Assembly: GCA_965178125.1 (NCBI GenBank)
Contig: OZ237749.1
Coordinates: 744,001 to 808,000 of the forward strand
DNA: 64,000 bases
Direction: 5' to 3'
DNA from: Bilabrum cf. latius
Taxonomy: Eukaryota
Under the pieces are notes generated by a model. It made no database searches. It saw nothing but the letters and a program-made list of their open reading frames with translations, and had not been told where the DNA came from. The position numbers were made by a program, and so were the translations under genes. Shown here piece by piece: positions 1-64,000 of this stretch; within the stretch, counting starts at the first letter, position 1; every line of letters begins with the position of its first letter.

Positions 1-3000
1 GTCGGCGTATGGACTGCCTGTGGAGGCATGGGAGGCCAAGGAGCCACTCGAATCGCCTCGATTCGGGAAAGTTGCTGCCAGTGGTGAAGAAACCAAGTCA
101 CCAGAGCCCGAGCTTGACGTGGTGGGGGCAGGCGAACGGATATAAAACGGTACAGCGCTGGCAGCCGGCGGTTCAGAAGAACCAGCAAGGCTTCCGCTGT
201 CCTGCATTGGCCTCTATGCTATCAACTCATCGATACCAGTGCACGTTCCCAGCTCTCGCAGCACTGGCCAGGCATGCTAGTACGCTGAATACACGGGCAG
301 CGCATTCCAGTCATCCATGGATGCATGTTCCACGCCAGAACCAGTTGAAGCAAGGGATGATTCGCCGCATGCAAAGCGCGTCGAGCCACTGTGCACAATA
401 CCTGCGAACTCAGATGGGCCTATTCGATCGGCAAACGACATGTCTAGGAACGGGAACTCAAGCAATGAATGCAATCTGCCCAGCTAGCTGTCGCTTGGAC
501 GCGCCGGGCAGAGCGCCAATTGTCTCAAATTCGTTCGCAGGCATCCGATGTCTCGCATGCTCTCGCGAGACCTTCCCTTCATGAGCGAATCTTCGTGGTA
601 ACTGTTGATTTGGAAAGCAAACTCGCGCTGTCTGCCTACTAGCGTTGTGAGGATCTGGACGGCGTCGCAGTCGCGCAGGCCAGCGGAGGCTAGTTCAGGC
701 TCTAGTAGCAGCTACCGATGCAGACTATTGGAGGTGGCACACAGAGACAAGTCGTCATCGAGGCTCAGAAACATCGAGTCCAGAAGAGTTCTAGTCAGGA
801 CTACTAGAGCGCGCCGGACAGCTGCTTCTGCCTAAACCTGTCTATGACGATCTCCCACGTCAGCGCCCGCGCTCTCATGCCGCGCGCCCTGTATTTCGGC
901 TCGTAAATTTGACCTGCAGGCAAGCAAGCTCACAAAGTGCTCGTCGTGGACGCGGCTAATTGCCTCTGGTGCCAAGCAAACACATGTTGCCAGAGCCCGT
1001 ACCGCGTACTACTAGGCTGGTTCGCCAACACTGGAAGCGTCAATGTTCGCGACGTACTTACTCCAATCCGCTTGACATGGAATCACCGCAGGTAGTTGTT
1101 GACGGATGTTCTCAGGCGACTGCCGCACGGCGTGACCAGCCTCTACCAAACTGAGCAAACGTCCAGTAGCAAACTGCTGGGGGCCATCTAGCTGCTATGA
1201 TGCACCTTGCATGCTCTTGGCCTCGACAATAGATACTATTCTGTGCCTCCACACCATGTTGGGTCGATCGGCAGTATCAACTGCGGCGCTTTCGGTCGGA
1301 TCCAACGGAGGCTGCCTGGCGGCTGGACGCAGCGGGCTCGCCGAACCGGAAAGGGACGAAGCAGCGCCCGGTCCGAAGCTGCTTGCCGGTGGCACAGCCA
1401 TTCCCTCTAGGAAAGACGCCGGGATGGACGACGGTCCAGGCGCTTGCGAAGACAACGGCCTTGCTGATGATGAGGATTGCCTGTAGAACTAGGCAGTCCC
1501 TCCCTGCAGCAATGACATGGCCAGCGCTGCACGAATCTAGGCTATAGCGAGCATGCCTGGCACCAAGCAATCGTTTGCAACGAGCTGCATCTGCCAAGCG
1601 GGTACTTCACAAACGCGTCGCAGTGCAGTGATTGACAACCGAACAGCTGCTATGTCTGCCAGGCATGTCACAGGATTGACGGCAGGCCCATCGTTCGGGT
1701 TGAGCTGCGCACTTGCCAGGTTGGCCTATCGCACGAGCTGCAAGGAGCCTTGATCGAGAAGAGACGCCACTCCGAGCACCACTGCAGAAGTGACCACTAG
1801 GTCCCGTCGCTTTGAATCGATGCGCTCATCTAGCTGCATGCCTGCTTGGATCATGCCGACGCATGCTGCAAGCCAAGCATCAGGGCCTGGTAAAAACCAC
1901 ATTGCTCGATGCAGTTCGTGTTCACAAGCATCCAATAGACCGGGAGGCTCGCCTATTTCATGCGATATAACGCCAAGCTCCGCATGCCAGTGGCGGTCGA
2001 GTCGAAGCGGGCCCGTCCAAAGCACGTCGTACCTATGGTCAACTAGCCCATTCGTCCCAGTGGTAGGCATCGGATAGGCCTCTTCCTCTTCATATCCAGC
2101 CGCATCAGAGCTTTGAGGACCGTAAAACTCGCCTTTTGTGCCAGCCAATGCAGCGACGTGTGGATCTCGCGCTAGCCACCTTTTCCGTCTCTCCCGCATG
2201 GGGGAGAACTCTTGCTTTGAGACACTAAACTGGCTCGGCTCGTGAATCGCGGGCAGCGGTCTGGGCAGCAGGGCCAACGGTACCCTGTACTTCCCAGGCG
2301 AGGATAATGCCGAAACCGCCTCTTCGCATTCAGTTGATTCACCTTGAGGGTACTGGCGCGGATCAACTCGACAGATGCTGCCTACGGCCAGTCTCAACAG
2401 GGCAACCGACCACCAGCAAGCATCCTAACCCTCGCCACCTGGTGATCTACCATCTAGAGATGATGGTTGGCTACCGTTGCCCCTTCCTCCATCTTCGCGA
2501 GACAAACGACCTGAACCGGACCCACGCAGACCACCCGGAGCTGCCGCGGCGTCTGGCACGCTCCGAGTCCGGTCTGTGCTGCGCGCTGATGCGCTTGCAC
2601 TCGCAAAACACGTGCGGGCCAGTGCACTAGTGACTAGCTTACCTCGCGAGATGCGCAGCATTCTTGCGCATTTGCTAGATACTCGGCCTAACCTGAATGC
2701 CACTTGCAAAGCGCTCTGCCTCCACGCTGCCTGCATCGCCATCCGTACTCGATGTTTCTATTCCGATATCGCATGAGCTTGGGAATAGATCCTGCCATTC
2801 ACCACAGACTAGCATGCCTAAAAGCACATATCCATCCACCCGTCGTCTGAGCTGGCCGTCTCCACCAGCTCCTGCGTGGTTCCCGCACACAAGCATTCCA
2901 ACCCAATCGTACAACAAGCCAGGACTGCGTCCATCTCACTGGTTTGCAGCTCGGCGGAGTGGGCAGACACGAGCAGCTTGTTGCATGCAATCACTGTCCT

Positions 3001-4234
3001 GGCTGCATGCAGCGCTGCCTCCTTGCTCATTGGTTCGTTCGAAACATCGCCAGAGGCAGCCAAACCTCCAGTGCTAGTCGAGGCGTCTCCTACAGCCGCA
3101 AAAATGTCGCGGTCAGGACCACCAGATACGGACCCGTCCGACTTCAAATGTTCTGCTGCAGAGCTCAGCTGACGCGATGAATCTATTTTATCGGCTGTAA
3201 GATCGCCCCTTAATTCCGGGCAGAGGGGCTCGAGCGCAGGTGAAGACAGCTTAAGCTTGACGTGCCTGCTCTCCATCGAGTCGAGCGGGATTGCCGCAGT
3301 GTTGCGCGCTGTAGGCGAGGTAATTGTCCCTGAACCTTTGCCTCCATCGTCACCGTGAGTTCCACCTTCGCTAACTTGACGCTTGCGCCTCCTCGTGCGA
3401 GCGCCTAGGCTGTGAGGGAGCGATGCGCCGGTCAAATTCCGCCGCGACCGGGAGAGCTTCATCGAAAGGCATGATGCGATGAGACATGCCGATGGCAGGC
3501 ACGGGGCCAGATCTTGCTTCTGCCCATCTCTAGTCCCATCCAAATGAGAGACAAAAGACTCGAGGATCGCTAGCTCAGACACCAAAAGGTGCAACACTGT
3601 AGTTTCCGTCGAAACCCTCAAAGCAGCAAAGTTTCCTGTCTCCAAGCACTTCTCGAGACCAACCGCTAGCGTGACGCACGTATTAATCGTATACTAGCGG
3701 GAGGTGCTCCCCTGTTCATGCGCAAATCTGACAGAATCGCCTCCTGAGCCAGACTTGACCTCCATGGCCTCGGCTAGACACGACTGCGCTACAGGTTGGC
3801 GTCGAGAGCTTCATACCAAGATCGAAGAATCTTTCAGAAATCCAAAAAGTAAAACCTGCAAATCCTCACCTCTAGACTCGCCATAGCTTCGCTTGGAACC
3901 TCAGTGCCTGACTAAAGCACCCGCATAGCTTCATCAGAGTCCTGCAAGAAGCAAAAGACACAGTAAGGGATCAGTACCCCTTGAACATACTAGGTTTCTA
4001 TAACGTAAAATAAATCGTTTCATTCGTTTACTCACATGGTCAACCGTCCCAGGAGAATGAGCCCCCGAGTGCCTGCGACAAGCAGCAAGTAATCAAGATA
4101 TGAATCGATATGGAGCACAACGTATCAATTGTCTAGCGCGTTCTCCCCCGGTTGGCTCACTAAGACATGATTGACCACTATTCGGCAGCGACGTTTGCGG
4201 GTATTGGCTCTGCCGTGCTGAAGTGTGTCCACAT
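1..4234 (-). CDS. Large protein of unknown function, over 1,300 aa, running off the left edge; exons 4234-4161, 4072-4036, 3941-3870, 3783-<1; TAG read as sense
   Basis: Track ORFs 277-474, 1195-1455, 1726-2397, 2425-2742 and 2818-3645 share one minus frame and each ends in TAG. No TAA/TGA in the gaps I read (1-1194, 3646-3783). Three phase-compatible GTGAG...CAG introns link to the ATG at 4234. No family motif recognised. Confidence 0.75.
3784..3869 (-). other. Spliceosomal intron, 86 nt, phase 0
   Basis: GAG|GTGAGG...GCGCAG|TCG. Removes the in-frame TGA at 3811-3813 and joins EAMASLE|SCLAEAM. Confidence 0.7.
3942..4035 (-). other. Spliceosomal intron, 94 nt, phase 0
   Basis: CAT|GTGAGT...TCTTGCAG|GAC. 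AT-rich, with a pyrimidine tract. Confidence 0.7.
4073..4160 (-). other. Spliceosomal intron, 88 nt, phase 2, splitting a TA|G codon
   Basis: TA|GTGAGC...GTCGCAG|G. The 74-nt exon 1 and 37-nt exon 2 restore the frame. Confidence 0.6.
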
Positions 4235-4483: not shown

Positions 4484-5809
4484 TCAGAAAGTATGCATAT
4501 TGAGCTCTACGGGCACCTCGGCGGCCGGGGTCCCTGCGTCCCTGGCTGCCCCGTACACGATGTCGACAGGCGCCCCGTCTGCATCCAGTGACCTCCTCCC
4601 AGCCTCAAGCACCGCGGTCGTCTGCGCAGTGGTGTGGATCGTGGCCAGCTCGCTGTCGAAGTCCTCCGGCTTGGCATCGCCGCTCCTCACCAAGGAGGCG
4701 CAGCGGACAAACTCGGAGATTGACCTGTAGCCGTACCCCGTCTGTCCGCTGAACGCACCGTCAGTGGGAGTGTACTTCATGAACAGCGGGTTTACGGAGG
4801 CATACCCAGAGGCATCGCTCGCGTGTGAGTATCCCCTGTGCGCCTGATCCACCCTCACCTCACCACTTCTCGTCATGACGAAGAACCTTTGCTGGCTGTG
4901 CACGTCGCTTGGGGGCGCCACCCAGCTGGAGGTGAATACACCAGTACCCTTGGCTCCGCTCTTGAGATCCTCATAGTCCACCAGGAGAGTGATTGTGTCC
5001 TCGCATGGTCGCCCGAGCGTCGCATCTGCCACCCCCGTCGCCGCCGACGCCGTCACCCTAACCGGCCTGGCGATGCCTGCGAAGCACCACTCGGCGAAAT
5101 CCACGTGATGGGAGTTCAGGTAGTACGATATGTCGCTCTTGATCCCCGCCCATGCCTTGAATGTTTCCAGCTGCCTCTTCGGCTGTGACATGTAGGAATT
5201 CATGAATCCCATGCTGCCATCGGCCCGGATCCTGTCCCTAGCGTCCACGTACATGGGGTCCCACCGCTTGTGCACCTCAATCGACACCAGAACATTGTGT
5301 TCCTTCGCTGCCTTGGCCAACTCAATGTGGTGCGACAGCTTCATGACAGCAGGCTTGGTAACCAGCACGTGGTGGCCAGCACGGACTGCAGCTAGTGCAA
5401 TGTCGAAGTGGGTATCGTCTGGCGTGAATATTGTCACGCATGATCCAGGTGGGTAGGATGTAAGAGCTTTGTCATATGCTTTGGCGTCCACCTCGTCATC
5501 CCCCGGAAAACTTGCGAATTCGATGTCAAATTTGCTACAAGGGTACGCGTCACGGATCGCCCGCCCCATGTGCTCCCTTATCTTGGGAAATTTCTTGCCG
5601 TTGACCCCAACAATAGCTGTATCTCCGACTAGACCTTTCTTTCGAAGATCGAACACAGTAATTGCAACAACACCTGCAGACTTATCAGACTTCGCACTGG
5701 CAGCTCCAAATCCTGTCGTGTACTCTCCCGATCCAATCATTATCACTGCAGGTGGTGTCCCAACACCGCTGGCAGCCCCTTCATTACCTGTGCCTGCTAC
5801 TCCAGCCAT
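4484..5809 (-). CDS. gaaA: Gfo/Idh/MocA-family oxidoreductase, fungal GaaA-type D-galacturonate reductase-like, 441 aa, intronless
   Basis: Motifs MIGSGEYTTG, SDKSAGVV, TIFTPDDTH, HVLVTKP, EVHKRWDP, SYMSQPKRQLETFKAWAG, SDISYYLNSHH and HSQQRF match the GaaA-like family from memory. Ends in TGA; no in-frame TAG. Confidence 0.85.
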   Translation of the reverse strand: MAGVAGTGNEGAASGVGTPPAVIMIGSGEYTTGFGAASAKSDKSAGVVAITVFDLRKKGLVGDTAIVGVNGKKFPKIREHMGRAIRDAYPCSKFDIEFASFPGDDEVDAKAYDKALTSYPPGSCVTIFTPDDTHFDIALAAVRAGHHVLVTKPAVMKLSHHIELAKAAKEHNVLVSIEVHKRWDPMYVDARDRIRADGSMGFMNSYMSQPKRQLETFKAWAGIKSDISYYLNSHHVDFAEWCFAGIARPVRVTASAATGVADATLGRPCEDTITLLVDYEDLKSGAKGTGVFTSSWVAPPSDVHSQQRFFVMTRSGEVRVDQAHRGYSHASDASGYASVNPLFMKYTPTDGAFSGQTGYGYRSISEFVRCASLVRSGDAKPEDFDSELATIHTTAQTTAVLEAGRRSLDADGAPVDIVYGAARDAGTPAAEVPVELNMHTF

Positions 5810-5892
5810 AATTGTTGCTCACAAAAAGCTAAAATTCTCGGCAGCAGAGGAGTAGACCTCTGCCAGAATACCAGAATAATTTGTAGGATCTG

Positions 5893-6103: not shown

Positions 6104-9100
6104 ATGTCGTCTGGATCTGATTCCGTAAACACCCTTGCTGGTCAGGTTGGGTTTGCATCTCATTTGCCTCAAAGTTTGGCTCTCACGGGCCCTGAAAGCA
6201 TGAATGATGCTATATTTCTTGTTGACTAGCTGCTGGCGCGCGTCAAGGAAAAACGGTCCATGAATCGACTGACAGGCCATCCCGCGAGGGGAGCGGTAGC
6301 CACTGGTCCATCTATGGCAGCTGCAGCTGGAACTGCGGCATCTGCTTCGGCCGCTGCCAGCGCTCCCAAGCGATCTAGTTCTGAATTTCAAGCAGCGTCA
6401 CGCCTTGATGAATCCGACGAACTGTGGACTGCTGGACTTGTAGCTGCGGCGCAGTGGGCACTGTACAACAAGAGGTCCATTCGAGGCAAGTTGCAGGATT
6501 CACGGCACATGAAGGATGCTAGGCGTTTATGGAGGCTTGATGCATCGCTCCAGCGGCTCCTGTCTTCTTGTGATTTTGCGTTGCGGTAGGCGAGGACTAC
6601 AGATGCCGGTGGCAGTCCCGAGGGTCTCGGCAAGGCTGCTGCTGCTGCTGTTGCCAATCACAGAAGTGGAAGTGAAAACTTTCCCCCTGCAGGTAGAGCA
6701 AGGTCGTCAACTCAACTTGACTTTGATCCTATTGGAATGGCTGCCGCTGATGCCCTTGGGTTGGATGGGGCTGAATAGGCGCTCGAGAGCCAAGGCCCAT
6801 TCGGATCAGCTGCGGTCTCATCGGCAGATTCTAAACAGGTAGGCATCAGTGGCCCAGCCAAGCCAAATCATGACATTGCGCTTGGCATAGCTATTGATCG
6901 CCGGCGCGGTCGCAACAGGGCTAGCACGGAAATCGGACTCGGGACTGTGGCTTTGCTGCAACATCCCGCTGTTGCCCCTGCGCCCACTGCAGACGTCCAC
7001 GCCACTGAGCCAACAAGCACTGCTGGCACTCTCCAAACCATCAACAATTCATCTACGGAAGCTGGAGCTGATGCAGGTGCTGATGGGGCTACATTCGCCG
7101 GATAGGACGCGACTGGCCGTGGCCCTACTGCTGCCGGGGGTCCGCCTCCACCCATTGCCCTGGCGTCCATTAGAGCTCAAGAAGCGCATGCAGATCTACC
7201 AATCGAGTCATTTAGTGACGCATCCTCTGAAGCGAGCAGCCAAGCCCGCTCATACCGAGCCCCGCGAGGGAGCATGTCGGAGTCTATTAGCCACGATGAA
7301 ATGCTGAGAGCTGATCAGCTCGCGTTGGATGAGTCAGTGGCTCTCAGGGTCATGCATGACGACGGACGCAACGAGCTAGGGCCCGATGCAAGTGATGCTG
7401 GATTCGCTGGTATGGGACTCCGGGCCTCTGATCTTCCCCCCGAGCTGCTTCAGGACCTTTTTGCCGCGACTGCAGTGGCCGCCCGTGAAGAGGAGGAAGA
7501 AAGCCTGCAGTGGTCGATCCTTGCAAGCTTGAGATCCGGTGGTACAACATCAGACAATACATAGTAGTTGGGAACGTTTGGTAGCAGGCATGAAAGCTCT
7601 ACGGGGCTGGATCCTAGCAGTCGGCAGCATCGGCCATCCTTCGATGCGCAGCAGATTGAATCTGACTTCCAGCTAGCGCAAGGCGGCTCCAGCGCGGCCT
7701 CCGACAGATCTCTGGGAGACGCAGCCTTGCATGCTGCAGTTGTGCACATATTGCATGAACTGCGTGGACCACGGCGAACGAACGCTTCTATGTGCACCGC
7801 GGCAATTGGCGTGTCCAATTATGCTCGCATGCCCCACGCGAACCATTTGTTCCAGGTTATGGGCGGGATAGCTGAGCTACTTTCGATTGCACTGAAGCCG
7901 TTTGAGAATGCATTCAATGGTAGTGGTGACGAAAATGTTGCAAAGGGACGCAGTGAAGCTCAGCACGATCTTGGATCAGGTTCTGCTGTTCGACATGGGC
8001 TACGCAGCGATGCGCAGCCCACCTCTGGCGCAGGGGCAGATGAAGCAGGGTCTCGCGCTGCAGCGATGTCTGCAGCAAACAGACCATTCGACATGTTTAA
8101 TCATCATTGTTGCTCGCATGATGATGCTAGACTTGCCTACTTGGCAGGAAAGGCTGCTCTCGATCTGCTCGCAACGTGCAACCCAATTGGATTTCAAGTT
8201 GTCAATCCCGTGAGGCTGTTTCTGTGCCTTCATATGGTGCACGCACTAAGCTCGGCTGGACCGAAGCAAGCTGCATCATTCTCAAGTCAGCGGGATGGTT
8301 TGCACGCCGGCAGTTCTACTTGCACATAGGTGGCCGAGCACGGTAGCCCATCGTCACCAACAAGCGTCTGGCAAGTATGTCAGACGCTGAAGCATCTCTA
8401 CGTGCCTAGCTGTGATTCTTCTGTCGCTGAATCTGTCGACAAGTTGAGCGGGATGTATCCAGACGGAGTTCAGGTTGTGATGACCGTGATCGGACGAATA
8501 TTCGTTGAGGTGCCTAAGGTTGGTCAAGGGGTGCCAGGACCAGACACTCCAGTCGCTGGAAAAGCATCGGGTGGTTCTGACTAGATTCAACCCGGTTTTA
8601 ACTTCTTTGCGTGGCTTTGGCGGAAGTCTAATGGAATATCAGGCAGAAGCGCTGGAACTGCGAGGGTTTTGGGCGGCGCAAAGCAGCGGAAGCCACTGCG
8701 GGGCCTGCGCTCTGCGTTGCTGCCTCTTCTCGTACAGATAGCTGCAGCCAGACCCCGCTTTCCCAGCATCGTAGCCGCACGGTCCGCTTGGGACCGGGCG
8801 CTTGCAGCCCTTCCCCCGGTATTACGTCAGAACGTCGCCCCGGATCCGGTCGCGGCGGGACGATGGGTGCAGGCCGAGTACAGCCTGGTCGATGCACAGC
8901 GTTCTGCCTGCGCAGTTCTAGAGCAGTTCTTGAGACAGCACTCCATGAGCAAGCTGCTGCTTGCATCTGGTGTTATGGAGGTGATTAGTTCTTGTCTTGC
9001 GAGCTCCTTTGCCGACCTGCAAGACGCCGGCACTCGGCTTGCATGCTACTTCTTGTCACCGTCGGATCGAATGCCTGCCCTGCCCTGGATCGATGACCTG

Positions 9101-12100
9101 ACGAGTAGTTCGTTTGGCTCCGCATACGGCGACGATGAAATCCTGTTGGAATCCGAGCAATGGCCGTAGAAACTATTTCCGACGAAATTTGGCGCCTTGC
9201 AGCTGGCTCCATTTTAGATGGCAGATTTTCAGGCAGAGTCAGTTGACACTTCCGAGCTTTGGGCATCTTCGTGTTAGCTGTCTCCTCCATTGTCAGCCAT
9301 TAAGCAGCTAGTGAGTTGCGAGTCTGCAGAAGAACTCCACTCGCTGGCGTTTCAGCTAGCCGGACGTGTGGGGGTAGGAAAGTCTATGGTCACATGGATC
9401 AGCGAGGTAGTGCAGCCGGTCTCTCCCACACGGCAGTATACGGATAGAGTTACGGCAAGTAGTGAGGCTGATGTTGATAATGGTGCTACAGATGACCTTT
9501 CTAGCGTTTCAGAGCAACGCACGATGGACAATTCTAGCGCTAGAAGAAGCCAAGTTGATAGCGAAGGGCCGTTTGCATCCAATGCGACATTTGTGCATTC
9601 CATTGTGGGTCAAAAGCGAGTTATCCGGCGCAGTGCAGTCACGGGTCACCACTTGGATCAGATGGTGTTCATTTCAGCTGCTATGCTTGCAGATCGAGAG
9701 TTTAGAGCAACTTCACTGCGCGCTGGCCTACCGGAAGCCTTGTGCGCAGTCATGCAGCTGCTGGGTAGTTCAGCAAGCCATCTGGTCTTGTCGCCCAGGC
9801 AAGGCATGAGGCGCCAACGCACAGCTTCTGAACTTGTCGACGATTCCGGTGACGAGGAAGGAGGTCCTGAGGCTGGTGCTTATGGACCTAGAAGCAGGTG
9901 TAACAGTAACGGAATCGACAGTTGTGTTGCTGGATCAGGTGCTGGATCAGATGGTACTTCCGATGCATCCTAGTCTGATTCGGGGTCCTCAGACGCAACT
10001 GACAGCAACAGTGTCAATGCGATGCGGTCAAGAAGAAAGGAACTGCTCGTCAGACTTCTGCTAGGAGGAATTTCGTCCAGCTGTTAGTTCTATGGGTCGT
10101 ACAGCGATGCAGGAGCAGCGGACCAGGTCTCGCCCGAGCAAAGCGCCACTATTGCTGCCCAAGCTGGCGTTGTTCTTAATGGAGGAGTCTCGCGGCTTAT
10201 ATCTGCCATTGAGCTGTATCGGCGGGCCGGGTCATTTACGATGGTTCTGCTTCGCGCATTGGCTTGTCTCGCCAGGCACAAGCCATTCGCTGACGTCATT
10301 GGTGACTAGGGCGCGGTGCCGGTGTTGTGTCGCTTGGTGGAGCACGCTAAATAGAGCGAGAAGGCTATCATGTGGGCAACCGCTGAGGTTTTTGCGTGCA
10401 TTGCATGCGCTTCTCTTCCGTCGCGTCGACTACTGCTGACGAAGCGAGCTCTCAACTGCACGTTGAAGATCATGCGTTCCAATCGATCGGAGAGCGCTGA
10501 CGTCATCCAAACTGCACTTCGTGCACTTTCTCAACTCGCCATGATTCCTTGCGAATCGTGCTCCTCGAGCTGTCAGATTATGGATTGGATGATGGGTGAC
10601 GATGATGCGACGCGGGAGGCGCAGGGCAGGCTGCAGTCGATCTGGGTGTAGCCACTGCCTAGTGCAGCCGCTAGTATTGGCGATGCACCGCAATTGGATC
10701 GGTCAAGTTCGACTGCGTCATCCAAAGCAAGAGAGTCTGACAGCCACCAAGATGGAGAGGCGCGTCGGCGTCGTGGCTCGCTCGAGCTGCGTGATGCTCT
10801 GAAACTGGAGGTGGATGCTGCTCTTGATCTCGCCAGGCTCTCTGAAGCTGGCCAAGCCAGTCGCAACCCAGCAGCTTCCGTTTCAATGATGCAAGGAGAC
10901 CAGTCGAGTGGTTTGGAAAGTGCAACGGGTTTCGAGCCCATCTATGATGATCACCTTGGACTCATCTGCGCGATGCCAGCAGAGAGAGGAATGCCGAATG
11001 TTCCCGTGCACCCCCTCCGATTCTGGAAAGTGGAGACCAGCGGTGTTGGTGCAGCTGTCAGGCAAAGAAGGTTTGATTGCCCAGACATTTGCCTCAAGTG
11101 TGGGAAGGGCACAGCCGATTGCATTGAGTCTATCCTTGGCACATTCTCTACGATGGCATCTGCTGCTGCCAAGATGAATGCCTTCGATTCGGTGAAGGAG
11201 TGGGAGGCCTCCATGCAGGGTCCGGCCCGATAGAGTGGTGGACCATCATCTGGAGCAGGTTCTCCGTCCGCCGCCGAGCAGTCAGCTGCCGAATAGCCCC
11301 CACTCTTGAGCAAGCTCTTTGCTGGCGTCGGCAAGGCACCAAAATGGGATAGCTTGGCCAAGAGACTCGCTGGTGCTGAGTGTGCCTAGCCTCGCGGTGA
11401 TGCTGAGCTCGTAGACAAGTCACGCGGTCCGCGCCGTATGTCCAGCACAACTCGCATTGGAACTATGCAGTCCAAGTCGGCTATAGAAGGGGTTGGATTT
11501 TGGTTCAACAGAAAGGAGGCAAGTCGTTATGGTATTGCACCGCTTGCTGCTCTAGCCTTGTACTGGCCTTAGCTCGGGCACGACTCCATGTTGTCCGCCA
11601 TATAGCTCCTGACGTCGTTTAGTGTGACACGAAAAGCTCGGAACTACATTGCTGCAGGTCCGATTTTGTAGGCGTTGCAACTATGCTCGAGATCGGGCAC
11701 CCCTGAGGTGCGTGAAGTGGTATCGAGGCTTGCAAACAGAGTTGGTCTCCCGAACGGTTATGACTACGTGATTAGGGCAACACGCGGCAACTTAAACGCA
11801 GTAAAGTGCTGGCTTTAGTGTGCTACATCACTAGCAAGGTAGCGAAGGTTTTGTACAAAGCTCGCGCGCAGAACGAGGCGGGCGTGGGAGGACCGCCGAA
11901 CATCGCGGCGGCTGCGCTGGAGTCGCTTGGCACGTGTTCGCAAAATGCTGAAGGTGCCAAAACGATACGAAGTTGCGGCTTCATTGCAACAAACTCGATT
12001 GCCTGCTTCTCGTCTAGCTTCGGCCGGGTTGTATGCTTCAGTCTACGATGCCATCACCAGCCAATCAAGTGGCGCGGGCTAGACCAGCGGAACCAGTGCA

Positions 12101-15100
12101 AGCTTCATTGCGAGCACTTGGAAATTACACGTTAGCTCTGAACTGACACGGTTCTTCTCTCAAGGTGCGAGCATGTTGCATGCCCGTGCTCCAAGTAGTT
12201 CAGACCATGGAGAACAGCTGGCTACCCGTTTTGACCGAATCACGTCCGGGCCAGCAGCGGCTGCCTCGGCGGCTAGCCACGTGCTACACTCGCACCACCC
12301 CCTTGCAAGAAGATCAAGAGGCATAAGTCTGCTCGCCAAGCTTCAGCAAGCCTCATCGACGACAGCTTCCTCGTATCGAGCAGCCCTGGTGTCAGTTGCA
12401 GCGACCGGAGCGGAAGCTAGCCTTGACGGCGCGGGGTCTGCGGAAGCGGTTTCGAGACATAGCGGTAGGCTTGGACAGACTATCGGGAGCAGAGCTTGGA
12501 GCCATGATTCTCATGAAAGTGGCGGGGATCTATTGATACGAGATGCCCTGGATGAGACTTCGTCTGAGGAAGAGTGGGCCGATGCATGTGAGGCCTGGTG
12601 GGAAGCTGAGGGCAGGCTGCTGTACCAAGAAGAACAAGCACGATTGACTGGATTGCACGACGGTGGTATGGATCATGATTCTCCATCTACTTCCGATACA
12701 AGCTCAGGAAGTAGCGATGTCGATACCAGCGGGGGAAGCGATGACAGCGCGGCAGATGTTGCCAAGGTTCCGGCCAGCGATGCGACAGCCCATGCCTCAA
12801 CAGAATACGACGGCTGGACCATGGTATCAAAGCAACCTCTCCTTCGTGCAGATAAGCGCATGTACTCTCCATCTGGCGCCTACGCTGCACCTGACCTGAA
12901 CCACGATCTGTTTGAGATTGCGCCGTCGCTTGTGTCGGTGTAGTAGGGGTATCAGACTGACGATGATAGGGAGCTACACGCAGAGTGGGGCCTCGACGAC
13001 CGCCGGCGACTAAACGAGGAGTATGGATCGTATCTTATCAGTAGGCAGTACTACGGTCCATTTGTGCCTTGCCCAGCCACAGAATCTTTACAGTCGTCGC
13101 CTGCCGTAATCGAGTAGCTCGCCAGATCTGCATCGCGCATCCTGTCACGAATTCGGCAAGATGACCTAGAGAGATCTGCAAAGCTCCGTGGTGATTCATA
13201 GTCCAGCGTGGCAATACGCGCACGTGCCATCTTGATGAGCTCTATATTCGGTATCGAGCGTGATGAGCGCGTGCTGCATCGTGTTGTAAAACTCGACTCA
13301 GTCGACCACTTGGCGCTGCTGGAGGACCTCGCTGTTCATAATATAGGTGCGGGTCCTGACGGCGTAAGCCTGTCGCCTGCTCGTAATCGAGCTAAGTCAA
13401 GCTATGGACCTCGCCACTCCGGAAATGTGTCAGCTGCCAGTGGTTTGTCGAGCAATGCAACCCACACCACAGGCGCGGACGATCAAGCCTCGAGATCACG
13501 AGGGGAGTCGTCCCCTGTGCAGCGGAAGCGAGCTCGAGTGATGTCATGCGATGCGACTTTAGAGGATAGCGATGCTGAGCACTATCTTGAGCGTCAAGTG
13601 GGTTCAGGACTTGTTCACTCTGTGCTGGAGCGAATGCTAGTACTGTGCCCTCATGGGTATGAGCGGATGCTCCAATTTTGTCCGGATGAAGAGTAGCCAG
13701 ATAAAGTCAATGTGGGCACCCTGGGCGAACTCACCATGCAGGTTTATGAACGTTCATCTCGACTGCAATCTACCCATGAATTATATAGTCTGATTTAGCT
13801 AGCTCGCTGCTTGGCTGGACAGCCACTGGGCCAGAGGACCGATTGGCATTTGGCATTGCGAAGTTCGATTCTTGAGGGAGCCGCTGCACACCAGGTCAAA
13901 GATTCTGTCTGGAGATGCGCTCCACTGATCACTTCCATCTGTCTGTATGGAGGTCGCAGTCATAATCCACGGCCACGGATGGATAGATAGCCGTCCGTAT
14001 TATCGAAGGGGGAGAGTGGTTCCAAACCTTCCGGAACCGACCGTCAGCCACAGGTACTACTGGATTTGCCTCCTAGCATCCGTTGGCTGGTGCTGGATAG
14101 TACCCGTCCAGAAGCTGCACAAGCAGCGGTGGAAGTCTCTGTGCCTCTATCGTGGTCAAGCGCATTCCAGTACAGTCTGGCGATGCATGTACCTGCGCTC
14201 AGGTCTCGAGTAGTGCAGCATCATTCAACACTGAATTGTGCCCTTCCATACCCTGTTTTTCTGCTTCGTGGTATTGTCGGGTTAAGCTGCCGCTAGCAAT
14301 TCCTAGGCGCAAAGTGGTGCAAACGGCTGTCTGCCCTGATCTTGCGTAAGAAGAAGTATTTCTCCGTTGCAGTGCAGGACGGGTTCATGCATGCATCTGG
14401 GGCAGTTCATAGAGCAACCTCTAGTGCAGCTGACAGATTGGGGGAAGCAAGAGGTTCGTTTGCGTCCTCATCTGTGTCGCATAGAAGATCATAGTCTGGT
14501 GCAGCTTTCCGGTCGAGAACAGAACCCTCAGACGGTACTGCATCGGATCTTCGCACTGGCTTTGTAATACCGCAGATGAAAGTAGATGAATTTCTGGCTC
14601 GAGTTCGCAGTACCAGTGCAGCAGACAATTCGAGTGCCCTGTCCGAATCTGCTGCTGTCGCGTCTTCAGCCGTAGGCCACCGAGGCAGCGCGCACACCGA
14701 CGCAGCCAAGTACTTTCCGCGGCATTCCTAGGTTAGTCGGCTATCAGCAGCCTCATCGCGGAAGCAGTCTGATCCTGTGGTCCTCGCGCATCCAGGTAGA
14801 GCTGCCGATATTGCAGCCTTGGCAAAGCTGCCTCAGCTGGTACTGCCTCCGGTGCCCAGCGTCCGTAAGTCGCACCACCTCCTTTCCGACTTGTCTGCTT
14901 GCGAATTGGGTTGCAAGGATCCGTTTGATCTGCTACAGGGGGCATGGTTGGTGCCACTAAAAACCACGTAGCGGATGAATGCGCTCAGTGAAAGCTGGGA
15001 CCGCATGAGACCTGGACTGGCACACGTGGATGTTAGCTACAGCTACGGCCTTAGACACCTAGATCTGACCAAGTGCTCGCTGGGTGATGAACTAGCGGCC

Positions 15101-18100
15101 ATGGTGCTTCAGGCATGCTGCAGTAGCGAAACACTACTCAGCATCGATTTGTCGGTGAACGAGATCGGGCCTCTTGCACCCAGGACACTAGGTGCATTGA
15201 TTGGAGCAGATGGGCTGCTGCGTCGCTCCTCCACCCTGAGAGCGCTCCATCTGACGGATAACTCGCTGTCAGACGAGTTTTGCGCAAGGCTATTTGCTGC
15301 ATTGTCCAACCAGCGGGGATCAATGTCTAATCCGCTTCTGCAGGCCTGTCGGCACGTGTCAGTTGCCGGAAAGCGTCTGCATGAGAGCGTACTACAAGCG
15401 AGCAGAGTTGATTAGGAAGGGAATCATGAGGATAGGGCTAGCCCGAGTCGAGCGAGCCCGGCCCTCTCCATCCGGGCCCGAGCGGAACGAACGAGGGACC
15501 CGGCACGTGTTTCACAGGGAACAGAGACTCTGCGACACATTCGATATGGTTTGCTCCGCTCCATGTCCACCACTGCATTCTCTGCGAGCAACCGTGCCAA
15601 GAGAGGCAAATCGCGCGGATCAGCCAGATTGCCGTCTCCAGACGCCTTTGACGTACGATAGTCGCCTGAGCATGCCCACAGAAGTCCGAGTTGGTCGGGC
15701 ACTAAGGAGTTGCTAGACTTGAGAGATTCCCATTCACCTAGCTATACCCTTGCGCTGGCTGCCAGATGGTACCAAATGAACGTGTCGACTTGCGCCCCAA
15801 AGCCTACATAGTCAAGACGTGCGAAGCTGAGCCCGATTTCCGCTCCCTTGACCGTGCTAGATTTACGTGAGAATCGCATTGGAAAAGTACCGACTGTGGC
15901 TCGCGGAAGGACTCCAACAAATCTCAATGGTCGCCTTACTCCAGCTGAGCAAGCGCTTGTCCGCCTTGTTTCCAAGAATCGCGTTCTGCGAGAACTCCAG
16001 TTGCAAGGCAACCGTCTGTCGTCAGAGGCTGGAGTGCGACTCTGTCAAGCAATTGAGCGAAAGAATACAACGCTTTGGTTCTGCAGAATGGCAGGAAACC
16101 CATCGGTTTCGATGCGGGATCGTAGGCGCGTGGCAAACTGCCTCCGAGTGAACAGGTCACAATGGATGCAAGCGGCTACAGGCATTTGTGTATAGCGAAC
16201 CACTCCCTATGGTGAGAAGAGCAGCATGGCCTGTGGCTCAAATTCCAATCTGAAAGAGGCGGCCGCGCCTCGGGAGAGGCAAGTATCTCCGATTGGCTCA
16301 GACACAGCAGCATCCTCGGAGATTGCGCACGATCTGCTTGATTCGCCAGAGAAAAGGTAGTCAGCGGTTGTGGAGGATTCAACAGGCACTGCTGCACCAA
16401 ACGTAGCGGGGCAAAGTTCGTACGTAGAGCCCGGCGAATTTTGGGAATCGAAAGCGCTGGAAGGGTTTTCCTCGAGCGATGCGACTGCAGCACAGCCGAT
16501 CGGATCGTGGCAACATGTTGACACCGAGATGCCACTAACCAGCTTGGCCGCAGTTCCTGGGACAAAGTCATACAAAGAATCCCTTGATAGCCCTCCGAGT
16601 TCATCTCCGATCCAATTTGATTCACCGAGGCTTGTATCGGTAGTCTTTGCAATGCCGCTGCGCGCGTACGGGTCTAAAGGAGCCAAAACGCAGGTGCGTA
16701 TCCGCCGATGGGACGTCGAAGATGAGAGAAAGCAAATCCACGCCGCATGCAGGAAAAACTCATCAAACCAGAAGATCATGACATAGTTCTGTTTTGGACA
16801 CCAAAATGTCCTGGAGCAAGTGATCGCTCAGGGATGCAGAGTTCTTGTCCTGTCCGGGCACAGCAACGGCGCTTGCATGTATTTGGAGGGACCGTGTGGA
16901 GGTGCCATTGCCTATGATCTTGGTTAGCTCGAGCGTGAGCTCCAAGAAATAAAAGCACACAACTCTGGTCGCATAAAGATTGATATGGTGATCATCTCTA
17001 TGTGCCAGTCTGCCAGTATTGGCAGGATATTTGAGGCAGCGGGTATCCCTCACGTGGTTTGCATCAACCAAGACTTTCGTGTCCGGTCCCAATCAGCTGT
17101 GCGGTTTACGGCAAGCATCATCAGTTTGCTAGCTCAATCGAATACAGTTGCTGAAGCATTTCGAAAGGCTGTCCACATTGTTGAAAGGGATCCTATGCTC
17201 GGCGTGCAAGAGGGAAAGAGGTAGGCAGCAAGCTTTTTGTTGCTACCTGACGGCGGTGCATCTGCCGCTGGCCAACTTGTGACGCAAGGGTGGGGAAGTC
17301 GCGTTAGAACTGACCGTCCATTTGATGCCAACAGCGATTCTGACGATGATGTGGCTGTGACTTCGGGGGCTGGTGAAGGGCCTGACAACGGTGCTGGACC
17401 TGCACCATTACCCAGGCAACATGACAGAATATTGTTCGGTTCCTGCCGTGCAAGCTTGGCCAACAGTTTGGCTCAGGATGCCCAGCAAAGACGGGAGCAG
17501 CTAGAGCGGGGCGTGAAGCCGTCCGATGCCTAGTAGATCGCTGGGTGGCTGACTGGGCAGCTGGGTGCCCCAACCATTGCCCAAGAACTGCTGCCGTACG
17601 AGCACCAGGCGGGGTCTTCTGCGTATAGCCGCGATGCTGTGCTCGAATAGGATGTTTCTGCACCAGATTCAATAGTGAAAATTCTCGCCCGTGCTGTAGG
17701 CTCACGATCATCGGCTGAGGGATCTGTTCCAGTTCCCGCTGGCACCCTAGAAGACGGAGGCTCGTCGTTCAGGCCTCTCCTCCAGGGCATTCCAAAGCCC
17801 AAGTCTCACATCGTTGGGCGAGAACTCGAAGTTCGCTCCGTCCTGGAGCTAGTAAGTAAGACCAAATTTGGCCTTGTAACGATGCACGGGCACGCATAGA
17901 TTGGCAAGAGCACTTTGGCAGTGTTGGTATCGTAGTATGTTGCCGAGCGCGGGGGGTGTGGTTTATTTGATGATGGAGTCTACTTTATCAATTTTCTGAG
18001 CAGCAGTAAAGCCTCAATAGTTGATACACTGCTTGAGGCTCTCGTAGGAAGACGACTTGCCCATAGCTTGCGGGCTCATGAAGCGCCGAACCATGCCTCC

Positions 18101-58285: not shown

Positions 58286-59634
58286 TCACAGCCTGACTTT
58301 GTCTGCCACCTCGTCATCCTCAGGGTCGGAACCCTCCCCCACCCCGACGGAGAGCAGCCGCTTCTGGAGGGCACCGACCGCCTTGGGCGTCACCACCAGG
58401 ACCCGCGCCTTGAGGATGTCCAGCGGGTTGGCCTGCTCGGCGAAGCACCACTTGAGCCGCTGCAGGTTGCCCGAGGCCAGCTCAAAGTAAGGTGTCATTT
58501 CATCGGGAGCCACGACGAGCATGGCGGGCACCTCGCTCAGCGGGAGGGCCTCCACGGCCATGCTGCGCACTTCCTCCAGCTGGCCCGACGCGACCATCCC
58601 GGCGGCGTCAAACTCAGCGCCGCCTGCAGCCGCATCGCCCCCTTCCTCTGCCTCTTCCGCCTCTGCCTCTGCCTCCTCTTCCTGCTCCTGCTCCTGCTCC
58701 TCCGCCTCGATTTCGTGCATCAGGGCAGAGCGAGCCACCGAGGCCAGCGGGGCACTCCGCCCCCCCTCGGGAAGCAAACTGCCTTCCCCGGTGCTGCGAT
58801 CAGCGGCTGGCACCCTAGTCTCTACGCCAGCGAGCTTCTCGAGGAGGTCCCTGGTCTTGTGCGAGGAGAGATCGTCCACCCCCGAGAGGACTATGAGCCG
58901 GCCGTCGCGTCTGCGGCTGCTCAGCACCACACGCATGGCAAGCCCTCGAATCTTCTTTGGCAGCTAGGTGTCCCACTCTCTCAACCTGGGCGGGTGTGCT
59001 TTGCCGCCCCCCACCCAGATGGGAGATCGGATGGAGCCATGCCTGGAGCGCCCGGTGCCCTTCTACCTCCACGGCTTCCGTCCCCCGCCTCGGACTTCGC
59101 CGCGCTTCTTTCCCTTATAAAGAGTCTTTCTCCGCTTGTTTCGCTGCCATTCTACTACTCTGTGTACGATATCCTGCCTGCATGGTACGTCCCAAACGTC
59201 TTCGTGTAGACCAACAAAGCCAATTCGCTCCCCAGACTATAAATTCATGATGGGCTCGTTAAGCTCGGTTGAGAGCAGTGGCTAGGCACTTCGTTTAGCA
59301 TCCTTATGACTTGCTGCGTTCCATGACAGAGGAGGGTGCGCATCGGAACAAGTAGTGCACTTGCAACATGGCTGCGTGGCCCCGGGGGCTGCGCGCGGGT
59401 GATCTCACCTACTTCGCTCGAAAACTCTGGTGCAAGTACTCCCAACTCAGTCATACTCAAGTTAGGAAGTACATCCACACTATTTTTCGTTGCTTGCGTC
59501 TAGATAGAGCGCAAACACCCAAGGGCACTTGATGCCCGACATGATGTAGTCTCTGCGATGATTCCACCAATTACAGGACGTGTCAACGGCGACAGTACTC
59601 GATAGATGGTTGATGGTCGAAATGAGCGACTCAT
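58286..59634 (-). CDS. MRPL4: Mitochondrial ribosomal protein uL4m, about 417 aa; exons 59634-59409, 59313-58286
   Basis: [63 protein letters not shown] and NPLDIL. Arg/Ser-rich N-terminus resembles a mitochondrial presequence. Intron 59314-59408 (GTGAGA...CGCAG) is inferred. Ends in TGA. Confidence 0.93.
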
Positions 59635-60024
59635 ATTTAGACGAGAACGCCCAGGTTAGACAGAGTGATGGCTACCAGGTTGCTTACGGGTTCGCAGGCT
59701 GTGAGGCATTTCGATCGTCGACCGGAGCTGAGCGTTCGCATCGACGCCATCCAAGTCTTATAGAAACCTACACCAAAAACAGAGATACTACAGCGTAAGA
59801 AGCGTAGTCTATTCGTGCTTACAGGGTGGCTCTGTGGCGAAGGACCAGCGGTTTTGTTCGAGTGAAGCAACATTGTGGATCAGCAAGGGAGCTTGCAACG
59901 GACGGGACCATAGAGCACGGCTGGAAGATAATAAGCAATCCAGTCCGACGGGAATATTTAAGTATATATCTGGGCCTCGAGGAGTTCGTGCGTTGCTGCA
60001 CTGATTCCTTTGCAAGTGCGGATC

Positions 60025-63000
60025 ATGCCAGTGCTCGCTTCCAATCTGAGCATGGCACCGGTTGCCGCAGCTCTCCTGCTAGTTGCAGTTGCAACGTGCT
60101 CTGCATGTCCAAATCAATGCAATGGTCATGGTAGATGCACTGGGCAGACCTGCTCTTGCTTTGAAGGATGGCAGGGTAGTGCTGATTGCTCGCGGCGTGA
60201 GGCAACATTCAATGCGAAGCACGCCATCCATCGCAACATGGCCCAGCGTACCAAGACCATTTTATTCAATTTCACCATGAATCGTACTCTAATTCACGCA
60301 GGTTCTTGTGACAAAGGTGTTGCTTGGTCAGGGCGAGCTACCGCGAACAACGTCGTCCACACCCGCCAGGCCTCCATTGCCGAGTGCTCCAACCATGGGA
60401 CATGCACCGATTCATCCGGGCTGTGTTCTTGCAGCAAGGGTTTCCAAGGAGATGACTGCTCCAAGTAGTCGTGTCCGCGGGGTTGCTCGGCTAGGGGCAC
60501 CTGCCGAACAATGCGAGACCTGGGCCTGTCGTTCGGGAGACGAAACGAGGTGTCGTCTGGAGGATCCATTGCTGCAGGGGATGGCTTTGGGTACTACTAT
60601 ACTGGATGGGAAGCTGATCGAATGAGACAATGCGATTGTGATCGCGGTTATTTCGGGCCAGATTGCTCAGAGAGTGAGAGATTGGGCTCACTATCGCAGC
60701 GTATCGGTCGCTTCACAGCTTCGCTTCGCTGCACACTTCTCTTGCCTGTCCACGTCAAGATACTCCAACATACCGCAGAGGAGTGCCCAAGAGCAGACGA
60801 TCCGCGCACAGTCGGACACAAAGCATTTTCGTTCAGAATCGTCTCTGGCCATCTGCTGCGCGCCATGTAGCCGTCCAGCATGCCTTCCAAGCCGCGGCTG
60901 ACCGTCTCGCTTCTTGGGGTTAACACCGAATTCGACTGGGATGCGACGGCATCACAAGTAGAGGATGCGTTTTCTAGTAGTGGTGCTGCTTAGCAGGTGC
61001 TAGTCCACCGGGAGGCTACCACATCTGTAGCATCGGACCCCGGTGTTGTCGATGGATACACGTTCACGGTATCTGTGCTGTAGTGGGCGGCTGCTGGGAT
61101 GACCAATAACTTCTATCACGACGGGGCTCCAGATTTTACTCCCCAAAATATAGCCTGTGATGTCGGTGGGACCGATCCTCGCGTAGAATTCGCGTCCACT
61201 GGGGATGCTGAGTCTGGCACGCACACGCTACAGGTGGCTGCTGATGGCTCGCTGAGTTACACGGACCCTGATGGCACCGTGACTACAGGAATCGCAATCG
61301 CTGCATCTGTTGAGCTTCCGAATGCGGCATCCCCTTAGATCCAGGCCTCATTCCTGCATACAACAGCGTCCAGTTATGTGACAGGGGAGTCTTGGACCAT
61401 TTTCGCCCCTGCTGGCGAGGCGCACACTAGCTTCAGGTCTGCAGCTGTGTGCAGCATCGAGCAAGTATCCGCGGGCCTCACCCTTTCCGGGGTGTACTCA
61501 GGGTCAGAGCCACTGACATACTACGTTGAAGTGTCCGATGCATCCACGAATCCGAACCAGTTCAGGTGGTGGACAAGTGCAACCGACAGCGCGAAGTCGG
61601 CTGCAGTCAGCATGTCAACCTCTGCCGTTCTGCTATCTCTAGGAATTAGCATTGAGTTTGCAGATACCCTTGGGCACATACAAGGCTAGTAGTGGCAGCT
61701 GCAGGCTTCTGGTCCTACAATCAACATAACTAGTGGGCGAAATAGAGGGTTGGACGCGGCAGGGCTTGCCACTGCGTCGGCCTCCGAGTACGTAGTTCGG
61801 ATTGTGGACGGCACTGCGAGCCCAAACACCTTCGAGTATCAAGTAGATGGTGGTACATGGTCTAGCGCAACAGCAGTATCTCTCGGCGGCCAAACAGTGA
61901 ATTCGCAGCTGTCTATATACTGGACTCACTCGACTGGCTATGTGGCTGGATTTGAATGGACCATCAAACTGGCCGCAGGTGGGCATACGCAGGTGATACC
62001 AAGGCCGACTGCACCGCTGGTTGCGGAGTGGGCTGGAGTGTCGCCTGCAAACAACGAATACGTTGTGTCTATATCGGGCGAGGGCACGCCGAACACATTC
62101 ACCTACTCCGTGAACGGAGCACCAGTGGGTACGGACCACGACATCGTTAGCTACAGCAATGGCAACACAGAGATTGGCACTCTTCGCTTGCGCTTCTACA
62201 GCACTACTGGATTCAAGATAGGGTAGCGATGGAAGATTTCTCTGTCAAACAAAGGCGAGGTGTCTCTGCAATCGGACGGAGCCACCACTCCGTACTCCAC
62301 ATCGAAAGAGCTGGTGGTCCAGTACGAAGGCACGGTCATGTCTTCGGCAAGCAGTAGCATTTATCACGTTGTTGTGGATTCTGTTGATGGGAGTTCTACC
62401 TCTGGCGCAACCTTTTCGTACAGCAGGAACGGAGCAAGTTTTTCGGCAGGGGTTGGCTCTGGCGAGGCGGGTCAGGATATCGTCGCTGCAGGCAGCTCAG
62501 CTTCCAATACCGAGTTGGGTAACGGACTAAAATTACTCTTTGCGGGAACACAGACCTATGCAGTTGGTCAAGCGTGGCAAATCGACGTAGGAAAACCATC
62601 GGTGATTGTGTCAGCTAGCCCGACCTTTCAGGAGTTCAAGATGTGCGCTGGCAGAGGTCTGTGCGCTCCCGCCACTGGGCAATGTACCTGTTTTTCTGGC
62701 TATGCTGGTTCAGACTGTTCGACCATATCGAGCGCAACCGAGACAACGAACCGTAATCCAGGCCATCTAGTGAGCGTGACTGAATCCACCTACACGGGGA
62801 CAGTACTGGAGCTGAGCACGCAGAAGCCAGCTGCACCCGATTTCTACTTCATCCGCGCCTTGGCCAACGGCAAGCAGAAATTTGGAGTCAAGGGCAATGG
62901 AGAAGTAGAATTTGAAGTTTTCACTGCCAACAAAGCCTAGCTTACTGGAGGTGCTACGGTTTCAGGTGGTGGCATCCAGGTAACTGACTTCGGCATCACT

Positions 63001-64000
63001 ATTGACGACGGGGGATTGCAGATTGACGACGGCGGTGCCAGCCTGTTCTCGAAAGCGGACAGAGTGAACACCCACATCATGTCAACAGTGCTCTCAGCAA
63101 CAGGCACTGATGGTTTCACCAATACGCTACTGAAGCTGGAGGTGGAACAGGGCTATCAAGCCTCGCCTACAACCACCAACTTCCACTTCATGCGACTGTA
63201 CGAGACCACAGTGTCGTCCGCGACACCGGCAGTGCGCACACCCACAGAGGTGTTCAATATTCGCGGTGACGGTCGTATCACCAGTCTCGCAGGAGGGGTC
63301 GAGGTCACAACCGGGGGAATCACCGTTTCGGACGGCGGGCTGAGTACCTCCACCAGTGATTCGACTGGAGTGCCACTTGAGGTTTCTCACACATCAAGTG
63401 CGTTCACCGGCTCTGCTTTTGTTGTCGATGTGCCAAATACGGCTCCCTCTTCTTCGTACAATATGATGCTGCTGCAGAGTGGCACAACCGAGCTTCTTCA
63501 GGTGCTGGGCAACGGCTAGCTACACGTGATGCAGGGAGGCATCGACGTGGATGCAGATGGCATCAACATCGATGCCGGAGGTTTGACAATCGCTGATGGT
63601 GGCGGTACCATCCACGATGGCGGTCTTGTTGTCAAGCTAGGCGGAACCACTATAGAATCGGGTGGCCTATTCGTGGACACGAATGGTGGATCAACGCTAT
63701 CAAATGATGACATCTCCGACCCAGCTGTAGTTGCTAGTGCTACTCACGCGTCATACACTGGAACCGTCCTCGACATTAGACACAATGTGGCTCAAGCAAA
63801 CGCAGACATGATTGTGGCTACAGCAGACCATGATGGTGTAGCGGATGAGGTATTCAAAGTGTACGGCAACGGTGACACATACATTGGAGTAACAGCAACA
63901 ACCCAACTTCGGCTTCAGCATGATGGCGAGATCAACATGGTCAACTCGGACTTTATTATACAAGCGGCAACGCCAGGGAAATCTGTGGAAATCGCATCTG
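60025..64000 (+). CDS. Secreted EGF-repeat protein of the tubular mastigoneme (Sig1/OCM1-like) type with a long beta-rich repeat extension; runs off the right edge
   Basis: Signal peptide MAPVAAALLLVAVATCSA; CPNQCNGHGRC, ECSNHGTC, CSARGTCRTMRDL, WEADRMRQCDCDRGYFGPDCS, ECPRADDP and CAGRGLC. One frame to the window end with only TAG breaks. Start is ATG 60025 or 60052. Confidence 0.8.
60197..60301 (+). other. Spliceosomal intron, 105 nt, phase 1, in frame and stop-free
   Basis: C|GTGAGG...CACGCAG|GT. Removal gives DCSRRSCDKG, the expected EGF linker. Confidence 0.8.
60674..60778 (+). other. Spliceosomal intron, 105 nt, phase 1, in frame and stop-free
   Basis: A|GTGAGA...ACCGCAG|AG. Removal gives DCSEKECPRADDP. 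Confidence 0.8.

Follow-up and report, generated by a model that had tools for sequence, protein, structure and literature searches.

Which meaning does the codon UAG have in the genome that carries contig OZ237749.1? A stretch of 64,000 bases of this contig (positions 744,001 to 808,000; hereafter the window) holds long frames of recognizable genes that are interrupted by TAG. An original prediction had proposed that UAG is a sense codon here and encodes glutamine, as in NCBI genetic code table 15. The analysis reported below confirms this sense use of UAG in genes of the window that are nuclear, spliced and transcribed. We hold with good confidence that it has been fully reassigned in a nuclear genome according to the table 15 pattern, most likely to glutamine.

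In-frame stop codons of the window

The G+C content of the window is 54-65%, and 58% is the value used below in the comparison of genome styles. Long frames were delimited from stop to stop, only TAA and TGA being counted as stops. Twelve such frames, 372 to 5785 residues in length, are obtained (Table 1). With the standard code, the same frames fall into pieces of at most 631 residues. The 19,725 codons of the 12 frames comprise 163 TAG, no TAA and 10 TGA. Each TGA is terminal and none is internal, and all of the complete frames terminate in this way (10/10). Expected counts were derived from the density of stop codons when the same stretches are read in their two other frames (off-frames). 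The off-frames contain 384 TAG, 147 TAA and 873 TGA, which gives 192, 74 and 437 codons expected in frame. Thus, TAG occurs in frame at close to its off-frame density whereas TAA and TGA are absent within the frames. The frames accommodate TAG as they would a sense codon and exclude the two other stops.

TAG is present in 11 of the 12 long frames. The sole exception is the gene of a GFO/IDH/MocA oxidoreductase at 4484-5818 (hereafter the GFO gene). Pfam or PDB matches continue across the TAGs in PPIL2, VPS35L, tafazzin, the mitochondrial-type ribosomal protein uL4 (uL4m), TTC39 and the protein kinase. TAG represents 20.5% of the glutamine codons (163/795). Site-specific recoding, either readthrough or of the selenocysteine or pyrrolysine type, was considered and rejected. 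It expects few sites, each with a local signal, whereas TAG usage is spread over 163 sites in 11 genes and the following base is not distinctive.

These counts bear out most of what had been predicted. Well over 100 in-frame TAG had been announced, about 50 of them in one 13-kb frame; that frame, at 6104-19351, contains 51. That UAG is a sense codon agrees with 163 in-frame TAG facing no TAA and no internal TGA. Standard annotation was expected to fragment almost every gene, and 11 of the 12 frames do need TAG as sense. Eleven of 13 genes had been described as broken by TAG. The eleven stand, but the number of convincing genes is 12.

Spliced contigs from other studies

The region 19500-39450 (19,951 bases) was compared with contigs from four public runs, each of a different study, including runs X1, X5 and X8. 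In X1, the entire region is found in one contig, with 0 differences. X5 and X8, which come from other studies, give gene-sized contigs, and those of X5 have borders near gene borders. Five joints in X5 skip 86 to 174 bases; the skipped segments have GT..AG ends when read on the strand of the respective gene. X8 shows three of the five joints as well. When splicing is applied at the joints, the frames of TTC39, PPIL2, VPS35L and a Ser/Gly-rich protein open into a first exon with an ATG, have a length divisible by three and end in TGA. From these spliced joints, we infer that X5 and X8 are transcript assemblies.

The region contains 54 in-frame TAGs. Fifty-two are located inside X5 pieces that show no other letters and 15 inside such X8 pieces. 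Over the 19,951 bases, a single G>A, in an X8 contig of low depth, is the sole listed difference. The original prediction had named CAG at these sites, in reads or in mRNA, as the observation that would speak against it. In the spliced X5 contigs, 52 of the 54 TAGs are unchanged. As far as the contigs show, the TAGs therefore result neither from assembly error nor from RNA editing.

The five introns, of 86-174 bases with GT..AG ends, are all 5'-proximal (Table 1). Their G+C content is 40-49%, as compared with 55-65% in the surrounding 4-kb segments. Four genes have their start codon in a short first exon, so that models based on open reading frames (ORFs) would miss the true N-termini.

The amino acid encoded by UAG

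Several TAGs fall on columns where homologs have glutamine. In uL4m, the TAG at 59063-59065 corresponds to x of the motif KPWRxKGTGR, which is Q in 5/5 displayed PDB alignments. At the column of the tafazzin TAG (38899-38901), 84 of 87 homologs have Q and the three others H. In VPS35L, relatives have Q at the TAGs located at 27121-27123, 26017-26019, 25945-25947 and 25744-25746, and human VPS35L has Q at one TAG site of the window. P0209, a VPS35L fragment 99% identical to the window protein, has Q at all three TAGs that it spans and ends just before a fourth one. This end is as expected from a gene caller using the standard code if the three codons are CAR in that relative. A second VPS35L relative, P0351 (72% identical), has Q at the one TAG that it covers (1/1). 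The converse case is found in an ortholog of the GFO gene on a metagenome contig, L001. There, three TAG occupy positions that are CAA, CAG and CAG in the window and Q in 17/17 other homologs. In the comparison of the kinase with PDB, the TAGs lie outside the aligned blocks and offer no column to read.

A Codetta-like log-odds score was calculated over the 10 alignable TAG columns of the window, with 8 residues used as control. Q obtained -4.7, followed by A (-12.8), V (-13.7), K (-15.6) and E (-19.7). Q is ahead by 8 bits, and L is not among the top eight letters. In the control, the correct letter was obtained for 8/8 residues. Judged from the uL4 (5/5), tafazzin (84/87) and L001 GFO (17/17, 3 columns) alignments and from the column score, glutamine is the best-supported meaning of UAG and very probably the correct one, as originally proposed.

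Between P0209 and the window, region 25744-26019 shows 1 difference in 156 residues apart from the TAG sites. The Q of P0209 at the three TAG sites would reflect either a very fast exchange between TAG and CAG, among close lineages or haplotypes, or translation of TAG as Q.

Alternative readings

Several observations weigh against UAG being a fully reassigned glutamine codon of transcribed genes, and they are considered here with the explanations that would compete with it. The TAGs could be assembly or sequencing errors, could be edited to CAG in the mRNA or could mark pseudogenes. X5 carries the label 'RNA? (probably DNA)' and no run is recorded as RNA, so that the RNA status of the contigs rests on the joints. 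On the other hand, four runs of four studies give the same letters apart from one G>A, the spliced contigs retain TAG, and the 77%-identical relative L001 shows the same pattern. Moreover, the frames are broken by TAG alone, never by TGA or TAA, and show no frameshifts over 19,725 codons, unlike decaying genes. We consider the probability of artefact or decay to be negligible. A sense codon with another meaning, glutamate or leucine, is a more serious competitor. UAG means glutamate in one ciliate, and UAR does in peritrichs and Blastocrithidia. P0358, which is 91% identical to the PKD/REJ-repeat protein of the window, has Q at the TAG 50849-50851 but E at the two others that it covers, 50693-50695 and 50015-50017. 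At the five alignable PPIL2 TAG columns, Q is rare (0 to 5 of 113-120 homologs) and the residues in the majority are E, V, K/R, L/M and K; E stands in column 47 of 83/116 homologs and L in column 539 of 57/120. Most VPS35L TAGs are found in regions that cannot be aligned with distant homologs, 7 of 10 TAG columns being gapped in at least 119 of 150 representatives. P0209 could also come from a pipeline that translates TAG as Q; the position of its end, directly before a TAG, makes this unlikely in our view. However, when the close relatives are pooled over seven TAG sites, Q is found at five and E at two. Only sites at which the relative no longer has TAG can be spanned by its fragments; changed sites such as Q to E, a common conservative exchange, are thereby over-represented. 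Canonical glutamine codons of the window also fall mostly on non-Q columns; the share of Q among homolog residues is 16% at these codons, 11% at TAG columns and 3.5% overall. The near-invariant Q columns of uL4, tafazzin and L001 GFO, the Q of human VPS35L at another site and the low scores of E and L relative to Q all argue against glutamate or leucine, and we regard either meaning as improbable.

Two further readings concern the other stop codons and the position of TAG in the gene. According to table 6, UAA and UAG would both encode glutamine, and TAA would be rare merely because the DNA is GC-rich. No gene ends in TAA (0/10 complete genes, and the GFO gene of L001 also ends in TGA), TGA being the only terminator seen. 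TAA bounds three frames, on their 5' side only, and the table 6 reading alters no 3' end. Nevertheless, no TAA is found in frame where 74 are expected from the 147 of the off-frames, and CAA accounts for a third of the CAR codons (211/632), showing that A-ending glutamine codons are not avoided. We give hardly any credence to table 6. UAA is not a sense codon; with UAG as sense, the code is of the table 15 type that had been predicted, and the 10/10 complete genes ending in TGA agree with it. Alternatively, UAG could be ambiguous, sense within genes and terminator near their 3' ends, with a context dependence of the Condylostoma type. Four TAGs are located 11 to 20 codons ahead of a terminal TGA, as compared with 1.65 expected within 20 codons, and a few of them may have a terminating role. 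Yet all ten complete frames continue to TGA and none needs an end at TAG. As to the following base, neither CAG (p 0.07) nor the other NAG codons taken together (p 0.18) differ from TAG. An enrichment of C after TAG relative to overall codon starts was dropped from consideration because it vanishes against CAG and the other NAG codons. Codes that reassign all three stops have them in frame, whereas TGA and TAA never interrupt the frames here. Termination is favoured by a purine following the stop codon; the base after the terminal TGA is G in 7 of the 10 complete genes, a sample too small to judge. According to McGowan et al. 2024 (PMC11687900), the described context-dependent codes deplete dual-meaning codons near true stops; no depletion is seen here. 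An ambiguous UAG appears very unlikely to us, and full reassignment is the reading retained below.

Relatives and spread of the trait

On L001, the GFO ortholog is 77% identical to the window protein and is flanked by homologs of the window neighbours. The gene order is the same as in the window: a weak, 27%-identical match to the 4415-residue protein, the GFO gene, then the gene of unknown family. The latter matches the window gene at 1..3810, with 34% identity over 826 aligned residues, and comes next after the GFO gene in the same relative order. The three long frames of L001 contain 3, 9 and 16 TAG (28 in total) and no in-frame TAA or TGA. The L001 lineage reads TAG as sense too. Fragmented predictions from other relatives, at 72-99% identity (P0208, P0209, P0213, P0351 and P0358-P0360), suggest that these share the trait.

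Among GFO homologs of 44-59% identity, 15 have an intact 3' end, and 9 of these terminate with TAG at the corresponding C-terminal position. These distant relatives therefore use the standard code. L019 (62% identity), from a metagenome-assembled genome (MAG) labelled Gemmatimonadetes, was rejected as a relative with the code of the window, as its long frames have no in-frame TAG. It is the one GFO-like match in the prokaryote genome collection. P0001, a PPIL2-like protein with eukaryote-type domains, is filed under a MAG labelled Chloroflexi; its contig looks eukaryotic and binned with bacteria.

Placement of the organism

The window is nuclear, with spliceosomal GT-AG introns and genes of mitochondrial proteins. 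The presence of uL4m and tafazzin genes implies aerobic mitochondria. Iotanema was therefore discarded as the source, since it is amitochondriate whereas the window encodes both proteins.

The best named PPIL2 matches are from haptophytes and ochrophytes, with 44-55% identity in alignments that cover between one quarter and one third of the protein. For tafazzin, the top named match is Plasmodiophora, which we take to belong to Rhizaria, followed by green algae and Palpitomonas. No close named relative is found for PPIL2 or tafazzin among the listed matches, proteins sourced from EukProt included. A PPIL2 tree was calculated with 42 rows, picked from 120 listed matches by having a name or a high rank. 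The window protein has a long branch, of length 2.32, and joins no supported group; the rows closest to it by path distance include ochrophytes. With PPIL2 alone, the approximately unbiased (AU) test gives p-AU 0.62 for a grouping of the window with stramenopiles, the log-likelihood being 4.9 above that of the free quick tree, and p-AU 0.47 for a grouping with fungi. The protein search with GFO returned clusters of mixed taxa and gave no placement. The AU test thus rejects neither grouping, and the stramenopile affinity that the original prediction had called probable is no more than possible from these protein comparisons. Small shares of the window's words are found in runs labelled algae and protist metagenome.

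We tentatively propose an independent origin of UAG as a glutamine codon in an undescribed, deep or fast-evolving clade of aerobic, GC-rich protists that would comprise no fewer than two lineages of species rank, that of the window and that of L001; we rate this proposal as slightly less likely than not, and the independence, also proposed originally, depends on the placement of the organism. As part of the same joint reading, and with the same reserve, UGA would be the only working terminator, UAA would perhaps be unused, and TAG and CAG would exchange rapidly, as 3/3 sites differ in the 99%-identical fragment.

Genes of the window

The features of the window are listed in Table 1.

Table 1 Genes of the window read with TAG as a sense codon
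Product	Coordinates	Strand	In-frame TAG	Introns	End
Unknown family	1..3810	-	16		3' end outside window
GFO/IDH/MocA oxidoreductase (D-galacturonate-reductase-like)	4484..5818	-	none		TGA
4415-residue protein, LRR + AAA_16 (STAND-type NTPase) matches	6104..19351	+	51		TGA
Iml2/TTC39	19516..22652	-	7 (spliced model)	about 22470-22555 (joint 22469/22556)	TGA
PPIL2 (U-box + cyclophilin)	22769..24948	+	6	22784-22887 (joint 22783/22888)	TGA
VPS35L	25054..29219	-	12	about 29026-29117	TGA
Ser/Gly-rich protein, unknown family	29446..33861	-	14	about 33465-33575, about 33651-33824	TGA
CMGC-type protein kinase (PRP4/DYRK/CLK-like), long low-complexity inserts	34298..38017	-	12		TGA
Tafazzin-family acyltransferase	38155..39426	-	3		TGA
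PKD/REJ-repeat surface protein, about 5700 residues	39563..56920	-	30		TGA
Mitochondrial-type ribosomal protein uL4	58286..59404	-	4		TGA
Teneurin-like EGF protein, Gly-rich C-terminal repeats	59962..63999	+	10		3' end outside window

The names PPIL2, uL4m, VPS35L and tafazzin, already given by the original prediction, are supported by matches in family and structure databases. PPIL2 matches human PPIL2 in PDB (7abi_t, E 1.6e-62). VPS35L matches its human counterpart (8p0v_O, E 4.4e-55), the tafazzin-family protein matches 7zkq_T (E 1.4e-15; 87 homologs), and uL4m matches chains of the human mitoribosome (E about 1e-31).

The 4415-residue protein shows weak LRR_6 and AAA_16 matches around its C-terminal quarter, a layout resembling that of STAND/NLR proteins. 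Its gene has the densest TAG of the window, with 1 per 87 codons. It is divergent from the GFO gene, from which it is separated by 285 bases (5819-6103). The PKD/REJ protein is encoded by a single frame and contains dozens of PKD/REJ-like repeats, each closing with a 'SDGCS'-type motif. Its C-terminus has a hydrophobic, putatively membrane-spanning stretch, judged by eye from the translation, and then a Gly/Arg/Met-rich tail with GMGGPRG-type repeats. The best distant matches of this protein are bacterial PKD proteins, with 25-28% identity.

Frames 57364-58155 and 58277-59242 were dropped as genes, being without a family match or antisense to uL4. The latter, on the forward strand opposite uL4, is the only long frame closing with TAA. 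Shadow ORFs of 250-630 residues, antisense or off-frame, overlie real genes in this GC-rich DNA and carry a risk of mis-annotation.

Possible mechanism and significance

In the explanation that we retain, UAG has been fully reassigned from stop to sense, most likely to glutamine; UAA is not a sense codon, and UGA closes each of the complete genes. In the mechanism that we propose for it, a tRNA-Gln(CUA), probably derived from tRNA-Gln(CUG), would decode UAG without UAA. The release factor eRF1 would have lost recognition of UAG and kept that of UGA. As argued in section 9 of Panek et al. 2017 (PMC5304391), decoding of UAG as sense without UAA calls for the anticodon CUA. A single base change separates tRNA-Gln(CUA) from tRNA-Gln(CUG). 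ARAGORN found no tRNA gene in the window, L001 or L017, and no Rfam match was obtained in the window. The eRF1 gene lies outside the window.

The reassignment of UAG alone is already known, and the organism of the window is a further case of such a code change. Changes of the nuclear code are rare, and a divergence in meaning between UAG and UAA is rarer still. Where termination is concerned, the described UAG-only lineages mainly stop at UAA, in contrast with the window, which stops at UGA. If the organism lies outside ciliates and metamonads, its GC-rich genome, with UGA at the end of each complete gene of the window, would show how eRF1 can drop UAG while retaining UGA. The case also offers a test of the idea that codon capture is easier where GC pressure has left few UAG and UAA. 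In practice, standard annotation will break about 11 of 12 genes of this organism and of its relatives, and such fragments are already present in protein databases. GC-rich contigs of the organism may also pass for bacterial ones.

Comparison with known code changes

According to two studies, about five UAG-only lineages, for glutamine, leucine or serine, were known before 2024, to which three events in one ciliate class are added (PMC11687900, PMC5304391). In the openly searchable literature, subscription journals and supplements lying outside the search, we found no nuclear UAG reassignment in stramenopiles and no GC-rich UAG-to-Gln lineage other than ciliates. The list of precedents given with the original prediction was incomplete. 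UAG alone is also read as glutamine in Protocruzia tuzeti, Hartmannula sinica and Trochilia petrani and as serine in Scotinosphaera (McGowan et al. 2024, PMC11687900).

Leucine is the meaning of UAG in the rhizarian exLh (Sainouroidea) and in TARA phyllopharyngean ciliates (PMC5304391, PMC11687900). As in the window, UAG alone is reassigned, and a tRNA with a CUA anticodon was predicted or found in these lineages. They differ in the amino acid, since the columns of the window point to glutamine, with leucine far below. The aphelid algal parasite Amoeboaphelidium protococcarum is reported to read both UAG and UAA as glutamine (Karpov et al. 2013, as cited in PMC5304391 and PMC6299283). Like the organism of the window, it is a mitochondriate eukaryote outside the ciliates with a stop-to-Gln change, but UAA is also glutamine there whereas TAA is not sense in the window. 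Code 15, with TAG as glutamine, is also described for crAss-like and other phages (PMC9523058). In that case, phage genomes are recoded against a standard-code host, whereas the window belongs to a cellular nuclear genome with spliceosomal introns. Condylostoma-type codes have all three stops in frame and deplete dual codons before true stops, and neither feature is found in the window.

With 58% GC, genes of up to 17 kb and 5'-proximal spliceosomal introns, the window has a genome style that we take to be unlike that of ciliate macronuclear genomes. UAG is a common glutamine codon in the ciliates Hartmannula, Trochilia and Protocruzia as it is here; in these ciliates, UAA stays a stop and the change has several independent origins. 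In five phyllopharyngean genomes, 86.9-98.3% of the genes end in UAA (PMC11687900), as compared with 0/10 in the window.

Iotanema spirale (Fornicata) reads UAG as glutamine and keeps UAA and UGA as stops, UAA being the primary terminator, and its eRF1 carries T32G in the GTS motif (Panek et al. 2017, PMC5304391). The likeness to the window lies in the assignment of UAG alone, without UAA, to glutamine and in the same predicted pair of changes, a tRNA-Gln(CUA) derived from tRNA-Gln(CUG) and an eRF1 weakened for UAG. Iotanema is, however, an anaerobic metamonad that mainly stops at UAA, whereas the window is mitochondriate and GC-rich, and 10/10 of its complete genes end in UGA.

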